A stretch of DNA of 7,498 bases, taken from the IMG/VR virus record IMGVR_UViG_2671180338_000015; one strand, written 5' to 3'. Positions 2,133 through 7,093 of the stretch are shown in pieces (within the stretch, counting starts at the first letter, position 1; each line of letters starts with the position of its first letter). Source of the DNA: a virus. Lineage: Duplodnaviria; Heunggongvirae; Uroviricota; Caudoviricetes. The notes beneath the pieces are model-generated. The model searched no databases. It saw nothing but the letters and a program-made list of their open reading frames with translations, and was not told the DNA's origin. The position numbers were made by a program, and so were the translations under genes.

Positions 2133-4102
<1,970 letters not shown>

Positions 4103-4193
4103 GTTGATGTCCTTTCTGGTGTGAGAACCTTAAGGAAACAACATGTTGGGTGGAGCGGACAATCCAAATGGCGAATTACCGTCTTATATCACT

Positions 4194-4204
4194 NNNNNNN
4201 NNNN
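4194..4204. other. Run of 11 N: scaffold or assembly gap of unknown true length
   Basis: Literal n characters in the sequence. Lies exactly at an IS terminus and inside a rusA copy. Confidence 0.98.
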
Positions 4205-4415
4205 CACGGCGGCGCTTATCCGGTGGTTCTGCAATAATTTTTATTGCCAACCTTCCGGACAGGCTTAATTTCAGCCGCTGCTGGCGAACAATAAGCGCCA
4301 CTGCCCGGCGATAACGCTCCCCGGCTTTTGATACAAAATATGTGCTGCCACGACGACGCCAGTAAGTGTTCACCGTCGGCGGGTAAGGTAAAACAAATTC
4401 TATGCGCTCGGTCAT
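4205..4415 (-). pseudogene. rusA: rusA 5' portion (third rusA copy in the window; N-terminal about 70 codons), truncated at the gap
   Basis: ORF track 4176..4415: MTERIEFVLPYPPTVNTYWRRRGSTYFVSKAGERYRRAVALIVRQQRLKLSLSGRLAIKIIAEPPDKRRR then Xs. About 90% identical to the rusA at 1167..1541. ATG at 4415 directly follows the stop of the upstream gene (TAAATG). Confidence 0.7.
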
Positions 4416-5820: not shown

Positions 5821-6081
5821 TCACTCATCTTCAAAAGCAGAAAAACCAGCCTTAATCCCAGCTTCTTTCAGAGACGGCAACGATGTGACAAATTCATTTG
5901 CACGCGAAATAAAACCATCCGTCACAAGCCCATCCACAAAATGAATTAACGCAGCTCCACTCTTCCTTTGTTGAGACTGTAAACATTTAATACGGCAGTG
6001 GCTGACAATAGCGCCATTCTCAACGCGCACAGTATAGAGGCCATCTTCACTAAAAATTTCACGTAATTCTTCGATTTTCAT
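5821..6081 (-). CDS. Small hypothetical protein (86-87 aa) in the position held by rem in K-12 Qin
   Basis: ORF track 5821..6084 (TTG at 6084, ATG at 6081). GGAAGGA lies 8-10 nt upstream. A sigma70-like promoter sits about 80 bp upstream. Confidence 0.5.
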   Translation of the reverse strand: MKIEELREIFSEDGLYTVRVENGAIVSHCRIKCLQSQQRKSGAALIHFVDGLVTDGFISRANEFVTSLPSLKEAGIKAGFSAFEDE

Positions 6082-6163
6082 CAACAGAATCCTTCCAGAT
6101 AAATAGCACTCCCCTGTTCGGGGTCCATCCCTCTTCTCCCTGCGCGCTACTTAAGTATTTTTG

Positions 6164-6193
6164 ATTCTATTCCGGCACCATCTAAAACTTCAA
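6164..6193 (-). promoter_or_regulatory. Putative sigma70 promoter for the 5821..6081 gene: -35 TTGAAG (6193..6188), 18-bp spacer, -10 TAGAAT (6169..6164)
   Basis: Read directly on the minus strand. Lies between the hok terminator and the downstream gene. Confidence 0.35.
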
Positions 6194-6200
6194 ACGCGTT

Positions 6201-6233
6201 GAAAATAAAAACAAAAACCCGCCGAAGCGGGTT
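6201..6233 (-). terminator. Rho-independent terminator of the hok transcript: stem AACCCGC/GCGGGTT with a 4-nt loop, followed by a T-rich tract on the minus strand
   Basis: Plus strand 6216..6233 aacccgccgaagcgggtt is preceded by gaaaataaaaacaaaa, which reads as a T-rich tail on the minus strand. Confidence 0.6.
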
Positions 6234-6238
6234 AAGTG

Positions 6239-6253
6239 TGGGTGCATTGAGGA
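6239..6253 (-). promoter_or_regulatory. fbi-like 3' element of hok mRNA, complementary to the proposed 5' end (tac-like) at about 6612..6626
   Basis: Minus strand here reads CCTCAATGCACCC. The proposed mRNA 5' end reads GGGTGCTTGAGGC, whose reverse complement is GCCTCAAGCACCC, a near-perfect match. Confidence 0.45.
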
Positions 6254-6301
6254 TGCCTGACCCATCAGAGGTGGCGAGGGATTTCTCCCCCGCCTGGTCT
6301 C

Positions 6302-6457
6302 TTACTCCTCAGGTTCGTAAGCTGTGAAGACAGCGACCTCCGTCTGGCCGGTTCGAATTCGTACCTCGCAGAGGTCTTTCCTCGTTACCAGTGCCGTCAC
6401 TATGACGGTTAAACAGATGACGATCAGGGCGATTAACATCGCCTTTTGCTGCTTCAT
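6302..6457 (-). CDS. hok: Hok-family type I toxin (51 aa, small membrane peptide), HokD/RelF-like
   Basis: Internal ATG of ORF 6302..6514 gives MKQQKAMLIALIVICLTVIVTALVTRKDLCEVRIRTGQTEVAVFTAYEPEE. AAGGAGAAG SD lies about 7 nt upstream. Classic Hok length, hydrophobic N-terminus and LCEVRIR motif. Confidence 0.9.
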   Translation of the reverse strand: MKQQKAMLIALIVICLTVIVTALVTRKDLCEVRIRTGQTEVAVFTAYEPEE

Positions 6458-6514
6458 AGCCTGCTTCTCCTTGCCTTTCGGCACGTAAGAGGCTAACCTA
6501 GATTTGCCGTTCAT
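6302..6514 (-). CDS. mok: mok-like 70-codon reading frame, in frame with and extending upstream of hok
   Basis: ORF track 6302..6514, ATG at 6514 with GAGG about 9 nt upstream. K-12 mokC/hokC are annotated with a shared stop in the same way, as I recall. Confidence 0.45.
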   Translation of the reverse strand: MNGKSRLASYVPKGKEKQAMKQQKAMLIALIVICLTVIVTALVTRKDLCEVRIRTGQTEVAVFTAYEPEE

Positions 6515-6582
6515 AGATTGAGCCTCAGATTAATGTTAAGCGTCTTGCCGGACGCGTAATGTTAACTGGGGCTTTTCTCTAT
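6500..6582 (+). ncRNA. Candidate Sok-like antisense RNA region, opposite the mok translation start; boundaries not determined
   Basis: Placed by analogy with hok/sok loci. Plus strand has a possible weak promoter (TTGCCT 6471..6476, TAACCT 6494..6499), a stem-loop at 6536..6559 and a T-run at 6572..6575. No single element is strong. Confidence 0.25.
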
Positions 6583-6633
6583 CTGCCTTTTGGTGTTCAT
6601 GCCTGAGACAGATAGCCTCAAGCACCCGCTGCA

Positions 6634-6661
6634 ATTCTACTTAACTCTCCTTTTCCCGCAA
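6634..6661 (-). promoter_or_regulatory. Putative hok promoter: -35 TTGCGG (6661..6656), 16-bp spacer, -10 TAGAAT (6639..6634); transcript start near 6626
   Basis: Read on the minus strand. Downstream 5' sequence GGGTGCTTGAGGCTATCTGTCTCAGGC resembles the 5' end of plasmid R1 hok mRNA as I recall it, and is complementary to the 3' fbi-like element. Confidence 0.45.
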
Positions 6662-6748
6662 ACCGTTTTTATCCCCAGCGGCAAATCGAATACACCACCA
6701 GCGCCACCGCCATCGCAATTCCTACCGTTGTTAATGCTTCAGGCCAGG

Positions 6749-7093
6749 TCATCGTAAAATATCCTCCACGCTTATCAGTCCGTTCCGCTCCAGATAACTC
6801 ATCGCCTTATCCGGTAATTTGCAGTCTGGCTTCGCTTTTCTCAGTTGCCAGGTTAACTGCTTTACCAGCATGGTTAACTCATCGACCAGACGCTGATATC
6901 CCACTGGTTTGTATTCATGCAATTTACCGGCTGGCTCTGCTGCCAGCGATACCAGTGCGATTTCCAGAACAGCAATATCCATCTTATATGTGCGGATGAT
7001 GTCATGGTCGATTGTGCCCGGTATGCACAGTCTCTGTGCTTCAATAGTCTCCTCTGCGTGAGCTATTAACTGCTCTCTGGTAAAAGTCGTCAT
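6749..7093 (-). CDS. Hypothetical 114-aa protein, second gene of the small-gene cassette upstream of hok
   Basis: ORF track 6749..7093. ATG overlaps the stop of the 55-codon ORF (ATGA); AAGAAGGGG lies about 8 nt upstream. No family recognised; it is not RelE-like. Confidence 0.6.

Follow-up and report, generated by a model that had tools for sequence, protein, structure and literature searches.

A hokD/hokW-type hok/mok/sok type I toxin–antitoxin cassette, very probably intact, in the nin region of a lambdoid prophage

The stretch of viral DNA analysed here in its full length of 7,498 nt (the window; IMG/VR record IMGVR_UViG_2671180338_000015) carries at 6661..6201, on the minus strand, the gene for a Hok toxin, the overlapping reading frame mok and, read from the opposite strand, a predicted gene for the antisense RNA Sok. 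We take this locus to be an intact hokD/hokW-type hok/mok/sok type I toxin–antitoxin cassette in the nin region of a lambdoid prophage, with a probability of about 90%. All elements known from the hok/sok paradigm of plasmid R1 are present: promoter, tac, ucb, mok Shine–Dalgarno (SD) sequence, dcb, mok, hok, 3' hairpin, fbi and terminator, as well as the promoter, tail and hairpin of sok. A first-pass annotation, made from the letters alone, had listed the Hok gene, a mok-like extension, a promoter, complementary transcript ends and a terminator. Each of these was found again, within 1 nt of its coordinates and always on the minus strand, and such agreement goes far beyond what chance would produce. 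Below we describe the sequence elements, their predicted pairings and their homologues, and discuss how the cassette would be transcribed and processed, whether its product would be toxic and which role it may have.

Reading frames, promoter and terminator

The toxin gene hok occupies 6302..6457 on the minus strand, with its start codon ATG at 6457 and its stop codon at 6304-6302, and encodes 51 residues. The frame proposed by the first-pass annotation holds: the protein matches the Pfam family HOK_GEF (E=3e-23; 81.6 bits against a cut-off of 22) and is identical in all 51 residues to HokD/RelF of Escherichia coli K-12, while 47 of 51 residues are shared with HokW. The NCBIfam Hok models gave only matches below their cut-offs. 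Toxins of this Hok/Gef family are about 50 residues long, span the membrane with an N-terminal helix and end in a periplasmic tail that is conserved. The SD sequence of hok, AAGGAG (6467..6472, minus strand), is conserved in all family members retrieved, and its complement overlaps the -35 element of sok. A 54-residue open reading frame (ORF) on the plus strand (6324-6488) was discarded as an artefact that arises opposite the hok region, in antisense to it.

A UACG motif (6319-6316, minus strand) spans the codon for Tyr47 of hok and lies in the 9-nt loop of a small local hairpin. It is the type of site edited from A to I by TadA, and editing would recode Tyr47 to Cys. TadA editing of hok mRNAs has been reported; that of hokD is edited at a low level, about 6% (PMC12214031).

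In frame with hok and ending at the same stop codon, a mok reading frame of 70 codons spans 6302..6514 (minus strand). It appears in the ORF list with the ATG at 6514 that had been suggested, and has the architecture of mokW and mokC. The in-frame extension of 19 codons which it adds to hok is also present in 79 of the 95 related phage copies that could be scored. The SD sequence of mok itself, GAGG, is located 8 nt ahead of the mok AUG (6523..6526, minus strand), so that mok has its own initiation region upstream of the gene it overlaps.

The predicted hok promoter consists of a -35 element TTGCGG (6656..6661) and a -10 element TAGAAT (6634..6639), 16 nt apart on the minus strand, as read in the first pass. 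The -35 element agrees with the consensus at three of six positions and is identical in 933W, GF4 and M8. The -10 element lies 6 nt before the transcription start, which we place by homology at G6627, where the match to the Rfam model RF01794 begins; a start near 6626 had been claimed. A generic promoter scan with a threshold of nine matches to the 12 consensus positions detected neither this promoter, which scores 8/12, nor that of sok, and family-wide conservation was therefore used for both. In hok loci of many genera and in differing contexts, a TAnnAT hexamer is found 6–7 nt upstream of a 5' end starting with GGG or GGC. As this distance is fixed whatever lies upstream, hok appears to have a promoter of its own, presumably a constitutive one, rather than to depend on read-through only.

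The full-length mok-hok mRNA would cover 6205..6627 (minus strand), with its 3' end in the T run at about 6215-6201. This T run belongs to an intrinsic terminator (6201..6233, minus strand), revealed by a terminator scan exactly where it had been proposed. Its stem (6233-6216) has seven base pairs, five of them GC, and a loop of four, and is followed by TTTGTTTTTA. This part of the window contains no other strong terminator-like site. The terminator is shared with the K-12 prophage Qin, HannyBb and PPompW, whereas 933W has no such downstream terminator. The prophage copy also differs from plasmid R1 in having a clean intrinsic terminator after fbi.

Antisense gene and RNA pairings

The leader of the transcript is recognized by RF01794: the alignment with 6627..6452 includes all 157 positions of the model (1-157) and scores 112.4 bits, where the gathering score is 59 (E=1.1e-25). 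The match lies in hok sense and runs from the 5' end of the mRNA to the hok AUG, and therefore this model, named 'sok', describes the hok leader. Its first helix is the tac-ucb stem. Conserved sequence and structure of a hok leader, including this stem and the target hairpins, are thus covered by the match.

The first-pass annotation had not located Sok but had pointed to a region of about 6500..6580 for an antisense RNA, in agreement with the homology to the annotated genes sokW and sokC. The position that we predict for Sok is about 6506..6576, on the plus strand. The sok promoter comprises a -35 element TTGCCT (6471..6476, plus strand) and, after a spacer of 17 nt, a -10 element TAACCT (6494..6499, plus strand). 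The entire arrangement, TTGCCT-17-TAACCT, is identical to that of sokW in 933W. Across the family, the -35 element is conserved as TTGNNN, and the -10 element has the form TAnnnT in all 45 distinct members, TAACCT being the commonest version (13/45). The TTG of the -35 element and part of the spacer were fixed by our search pattern, so only the -10 element and its spacing count as independent evidence.

Transcription of sok would start at about G6506, 8 nt inside mok, as it does in annotated sokW and sokC. The RNA is about 71 nt long with a 3' end anywhere from 6576 to 6582, and is predicted to fold into a single-stranded 5' tail of 14 nt and a long hairpin followed by UUUU (-29.9 kcal/mol, z = -4.9). 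The sequence features are those of a cis-antisense RNA: the promoter lies in the leader region, the tail is complementary to the mok initiation region and the hairpin resembles a terminator. For hokW-sokW, a mutation in the -10 region of sokW abolished antitoxin protection, and sokW provided in trans restored it (PMC8621323).

The 5' and 3' ends of the hok transcript are complementary. The translational activator element tac, GGGUGCUUGAGG (DNA GGGTGCTTGAGG; 6616..6627, minus strand), was identified from the full-length fold and the Rfam consensus structure. The fold-back inhibitory element fbi, CCUCAAuGCACCC (DNA CCTCAATGCACCC; 6240..6252, minus strand), pairs with tac and lies at a conserved distance after the stop codon. 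A 3' partner at 6239..6253 had been claimed in the first pass; we find 6627-6616 paired with 6252-6240 through 12 base pairs and one bulged U, with a duplex energy of -21.1 kcal/mol. This energy was equalled by one of 2000 shuffles of the 3' region, and no other site in the 7.5-kb window pairs as well with tac, its own complement aside. Folding of the 423-nt transcript (-169.2 kcal/mol, z = -7.0) puts the predicted tac-fbi helix in both the minimum free energy (MFE) structure and the centroid, with pair probabilities of 0.90–1.00 for all 12 pairs.

Conservation of this long-range helix extends beyond the window. The best complement to each tac is located 47–56 nt after the hok stop codon and co-varies with tac across genera. 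The same range of spacing holds in Escherichia, Kluyvera, Pantoea, Pseudocitrobacter and R1-type plasmids. The variant found in the window, GGGUGCUUGAGG, is accompanied by CCUCAA(u/c)GCACCC. Other tac variants have matching partners: GGGUGCCUGAGA with UCUCAuGGCACCC (hokB), GGGCGCCUGAGA with UCUCAuGGCGCCC, GGGUGCUUGAGA with UCUCAAcGCACCC, and GGCGCUUGAGG with CCUGAAGCGCC (R1 type). When nine tac-fbi pairs were counted, 99% of the cells were paired, compared with 43–57% when the partner was slid, and changes on both sides that compensate each other were found at pairs 4 and 12. In reading these counts it should be borne in mind that each homologous fbi had been selected as the segment that best complements tac, though the distance of these segments is conserved. 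Pair 7 was left out since the bulge shifts one column between the hokB and hokD types, and three rows (L006, L185, L191) were ignored because the automatic selection of tac had chosen a wrong motif.

Further predicted helices correspond to the alternative states of R1 hok mRNA. The ucb or anti-SD element AAGCCCCAG (6566..6574, minus strand) has two possible partners. In the MFE structure of the full-length RNA it covers the mok SD (6526-6523), which matches the published closed form (PMC9841398), while it pairs with tac in the Rfam consensus and in the MFE structure of the 5' domain, which folds alone into the Rfam-type tac-ucb stem (-25.8 kcal/mol). The element dcb, AGCCUC (6489..6494, minus strand), is complementary to the mok SD region GAGGCU and was identified from a constrained fold. 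It overlaps the sok -10 element on the opposite strand, an overlap likewise noted for R1 (PMC9841398). Within the 5' leader, tac may also pair locally with GUCUCAGGCAU (6599..6609, minus strand), as seen in the MFE structure of the 3'-truncated RNA; this hairpin corresponds to the 'metastable' nascent structure of R1 hok (PMC9841398). A hairpin in the 3' untranslated region, GGCGGGGGA-GAAA-UCCCUCGCC (6273..6294, minus strand), is present in all folds and aligns with the R1 hairpin GGCGGGC-GCAG-GCCCGCC. By this analogy, it is likely to be the stop point of exonucleolytic processing from the 3' end.

When the tac-ucb stem is enforced, the full-length RNA loses 11.1 kcal/mol of stability, but an RNA cut back to the hairpin at 6294-6273 only 1.3 kcal/mol. 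With the stem enforced in the truncated RNA, the mok SD pairs with dcb.

By analogy with the R1 paradigm, the regulatory model of which has been summarized (PMC9841398), we propose the following course of events. A weak constitutive promoter would give rise to an mRNA of about 420 nt starting at G6627. In the nascent RNA, the 5' tac would be held in its local hairpin; in the finished RNA, tac would pair with fbi, and ucb would cover the ribosome-binding site of mok. The full-length RNA would neither be translated nor bound by Sok, because tac and fbi are paired and the mok ribosome-binding site is covered. Slow trimming of the 3' end to the hairpin at 6294-6273 would remove fbi, upon which tac would pair with ucb and the mok start would become available. 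Translation of hok would require that of the overlapping mok. Meanwhile the stronger plus-strand promoter (6471-6499, start at about 6506) would supply Sok of about 71 nt, whose single-stranded 5' tail would pair with the mok initiation region, and the resulting duplex would be destroyed. Once the supply of Sok stops, the pool of stable mRNA would yield Hok, a 51-residue inner-membrane peptide that would collapse the membrane.

Relatives of the cassette

The kind of locus described here is already known and is extremely common in E. coli. With a query of 551 nt, matches to the cassette were obtained in 4,941 of 5,426 complete E. coli genomes, 3,414 of them with a coverage of at least 80%; the median number of places per genome is two and the maximum ten. 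Among phages, 82 records match, including 933W, the record of which annotates mokW, hokW and the 71-nt antisense RNA sokW at homologous positions. The copy in the window is identical over 510/510 nt to an IMG/VR contig (L043), and further copies at about 87% identity are carried by P1-like IncY phage-plasmids. In RefSeq, the coding sequence bears the name hokD in thousands of genomes.

A pattern scan of IMG/VR yielded 102 unique hokD/hokW-type copies. Among these, the conserved block begins near the -35 element and stops at the terminator. As this block spans roughly promoter to terminator, it fits a self-contained cassette. A second scan with a DNA pattern, using one genome per species, gave chance matches in Streptomyces and other taxa, which were filtered out by means of the Hok reading frame. 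Hok loci were then found in Escherichia, Shigella, Kluyvera, Citrobacter, Pseudocitrobacter, Atlantibacter, Pantoea, Serratia, Erwinia and others. In some cases two hok cassettes stand in tandem on the same strand, about 500–770 bp apart: in E. whittamii, Atlantibacter sp., Franconibacter helveticus and one Kluyvera-type locus (L141, L173, L191, L218).

The closest characterized relative is hokW/mokW/sokW of the Stx2 phage 933W and the Sakai prophage Sp5 (AF125520; PMC8621323), to which the cassette is about 93% identical at the DNA level. Apart from the bulged base, no differences exist in the hok promoter, tac, ucb, the sok promoter, the hok SD and fbi. Both loci specify a Sok of 71 nt with the same extra hairpin segment and an in-frame mok of 70 codons. 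They differ, besides the terminator, in mok codons 2–6, which coincide with the Sok 5' tail (MLNTC in 933W, MNGKS in the window), and in their position: hokW is found near the right end of the prophage in Sp5/933W, whereas the window copy lies in the nin region.

The hokD (relF) locus in the K-12 prophage Qin encodes the same Hok protein and is identical in 322 of 331 nt, from the hok SD through the terminator into the region upstream of rem. The downstream order rem, DUF968/ydfU, Q is also the same. In contrast to the window, relBE replaces everything upstream of 6471 in Qin, so that K-12 hokD lacks the hok promoter, tac, ucb, the mok start and sok. Since the homology begins only at 6471, within the hok SD, we regard K-12 hokD as a truncated derivative.

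More distant are hokC (gef)/mokC/sokC of E. coli and hok/sok (parB) of plasmid R1. For hokC, Hok is 82% identical, tac and the layout of mok are the same, and Sok likewise begins 8 nt into mok; but IS186 separates the K-12 copy from its fbi, the leader is without the extra hairpin segment of about 20 nt, and the sok -10 element differs and follows a spacer of 18 nt. R1 shows the same element order and pairings, an in-frame mok extension of 19 codons and a similar layout of the sok promoter (TTGCGC-17-TATCCT). Its Hok, however, shares only about 39% identity, its tac and fbi show co-variation (GGCGCUU with AAGCGCC), and the hairpins in the 5' leader differ in length. In addition, the R1 copy is plasmid-borne, and for it the killing phenotype has been demonstrated.

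One internal part of the cassette varies strongly. A patch at 6500..6521, read on both strands, comprises mok codons 2–6, which are the Sok 5' tail, and 5 nt upstream of the Sok start. Among the 102 unique phage copies its nucleotide diversity is 0.33, compared with 0.10 for the rest of the transcript, and about ten discrete alleles can be distinguished; no other internal part of the transcript is comparably variable. The allele of the window (ATGAACGGCAAATCTAGG, Mok sequence MNGKS) is represented in 11 of the 102 copies. Among the 5,426 complete genomes, 1,626 have this allele, at 1,709 places in total and up to four per genome. Another Sok-tail allele occupies 2,049 places in 1,752 genomes, and in some genomes the same allele is found up to three or four times.

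As the Sok tail starts the pairing, the alleles could be specificity types. The patch might then be a diversifying determinant of specificity, through which prophage copies that are otherwise nearly identical and share a polylysogenic host would ignore one another's Sok, much as with incompatibility or immunity types. We consider this doubtful. Counting two alleles in complete E. coli genomes did not reveal strict exclusion among co-resident copies, and the idea remains speculative for this reason. It is not favoured over relaxed constraint, under which a hairpin loop and a leader peptide of little importance may simply be free to vary.

Genomic setting and biological role

The cassette is located in the nin region, between the replication genes on one side and rem, DUF968, rusA and Q on the other. 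In the nearly identical locus of strain GF4 the order is replication gene P, small ORFs, hokD, rem, DUF968, rusA, Q, tRNAs and lysis genes, all on one strand, and K-12 Qin has the same gene order. The orientation is that of early rightward transcription, and the scan predicted no terminator in the stretch from the upstream ORFs to hok. Read-through at induction would meet the sok promoter head-on.

That the locus is a working type I toxin–antitoxin cassette, from which Hok would be released when the supply of Sok stops, is well supported by homology. By analogy with hokW-sokW, its most likely role would be exerted at prophage induction: loss of Sok would let Hok hasten growth arrest and lysis and raise phage release. 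HokW is toxic and is neutralized by sokW, and both RNAs are present in the lysogen before induction. On induction sokW disappears, and HokW then appears about 1 h before the endolysin. Deletion of hokW-sokW delayed growth arrest by about 40 min and halved phage release. Of the features expected from the paradigm, namely a stable hok mRNA with a processed 3' end, an unstable Sok and cleavage of their duplex by RNase III, part has been shown for this system (all PMC8621323).

Other roles have to be weighed against help with lysis. The first-pass annotation regarded the locus as an autonomous module competent for post-segregational killing, which would kill cells that lose the prophage as R1 hok/sok does, and not as a decayed remnant. 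The structural part of this view stands: every element is intact, all R1-type regulatory elements are present, and decay was rejected. Many phages moreover carry the cassette conserved as one unit, promoter and terminator included, and so do P1-like IncY phage-plasmids, for which addiction would make sense; prophage maintenance is listed among the roles of toxin–antitoxin systems (bioRxiv 10.1101/2025.08.07.668861). The killing part fares less well, and we consider addiction unlikely for this copy. An integrated prophage is not lost through mis-segregation, deletion of hokW-sokW had no effect on growth, its phenotype being seen at induction (PMC8621323), and chromosomal hokA, hokB and hokC did not kill according to the account of Pedersen & Gerdes (1999) given in bioRxiv 10.1101/2025.08.07.668861. 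Much the same reserve applies to abortive infection or phage exclusion, in which a lytic phage would shut down host transcription, Sok synthesis would end and Hok would be released. Such a mechanism needs only an unstable antisense RNA and a stable mRNA; a role of R1 hok/sok in phage defence is among the reports cited in the same preprint, and hok genes are enriched about fourfold in prophages (bioRxiv 10.1101/2025.08.07.668861). The same study, however, found no enrichment of hok near defence systems, and nothing in the window bears on exclusion. Both addiction and exclusion are therefore ranked below help with lysis at induction, with defence or stabilization as possible functions.

Very improbable, in our view, is a silent or decayed locus like the K-12 copies, in which read-through from the early rightward operon would be the sole source of hok transcripts and no Sok would be made. 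The common orientation with the nin-region neighbours, the uninterrupted path from the upstream ORFs and the scores of both promoters below the scan threshold would be compatible with it. Compared with the experimentally active hokW-sokW, however, no inactivating change is found, the hok promoter, tac, ucb, the sok promoter, the hok SD and fbi being all identical, and lysogens contained hokW as well as sokW RNA already before induction (PMC8621323). The fixed distance of the hok -10 element from the transcription start in unrelated contexts likewise speaks against it. What decay looks like is illustrated by K-12 hokD, where everything upstream of 6471 is missing.

Several observations weigh against a regulated cassette that acts at induction. 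Neither promoter was found by the generic scan. In the unconstrained MFE structure of the 3'-truncated RNA, tac is engaged in the local 5' hairpin with 6609-6599, and the tac-ucb stem is not seen; the difference on which the predicted switch depends therefore falls inside the error of such energy calculations. Each alternative pairing known from R1 does exist here, and in the models the open form becomes competitive once the 3' end has been removed, but thermodynamics do not prove a switch. The intact chromosomal genes hokA, hokB and hokC, as summarized in the above preprint from Pedersen & Gerdes (1999), were not activated by rifampicin, and intact chromosomal hok loci are reported to kill neither upon rifampicin treatment nor when a plasmid is lost. 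Because hokW sits elsewhere in the phage genome, its role may not transfer to the nin-region copy. Finally, the prophage around the cassette is damaged by an insertion of the IS21 family of insertion sequences (IS) in rusA, by duplicated segments and by an assembly gap, and a role linked to induction may be moot in this strain for that reason.

The damage concerns the region downstream of the cassette. The IS21-family element lies within 2133-4204, with istA at 2930-4102 and istB at 2133-2933, and ends at a run of 11 N (4194-4204), which probably marks a gap left by the assembly at the edge of the IS. Apart from a full rusA (1167-1541), rusA-related fragments are present at 434-739 and 4205-4415, the latter being a 5' fragment that adjoins the N run. 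An ORF for a Q-type antiterminator is located at 640-1170. Direct repeats connect 1-300 with 734-1033 (90% identical) and 1337-1539 with 4205-4407 (89% identical). Together this points to a rearranged, mosaic region or to mis-assembly.

Two features adjoin the cassette directly. A 27-residue hydrophobic ORF (6669-6752, minus strand) starts in an ATGA overlap with the stop codon of the 114-residue ORF upstream and ends 8 nt before the hok -35 element. It has no match in Pfam or NCBIfam, and a similar frame can be read in 933W (MTWPEAFANVGTVMAVVLVVYSICRWR), where it is unannotated. On the other side, a promoter-like sequence TTGAAG-18-TAGAAT (6164-6193, minus strand) follows directly after the hok terminator, upstream of rem (5821-6084), and is kept in K-12 Qin.

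As a discovery the locus is of small importance, since most complete E. coli genomes contain this cassette, which is annotated in 933W, named in RefSeq and regulated in textbook fashion. The coordinates of its RNA elements may be useful for annotation, because RefSeq usually names only hokD and leaves mok and Sok unannotated; at the loci inspected (H99-H108), no feature lies under the mok start and Sok region, and only the hokD coding sequence is named. The copy in the window displays the complete form of a locus which K-12 keeps only as the truncated hokD/relF. Its position in the nin region puts a killer cassette of a validated type into the path of early rightward transcription, which would offer a route for coupling the release of Hok to prophage induction.

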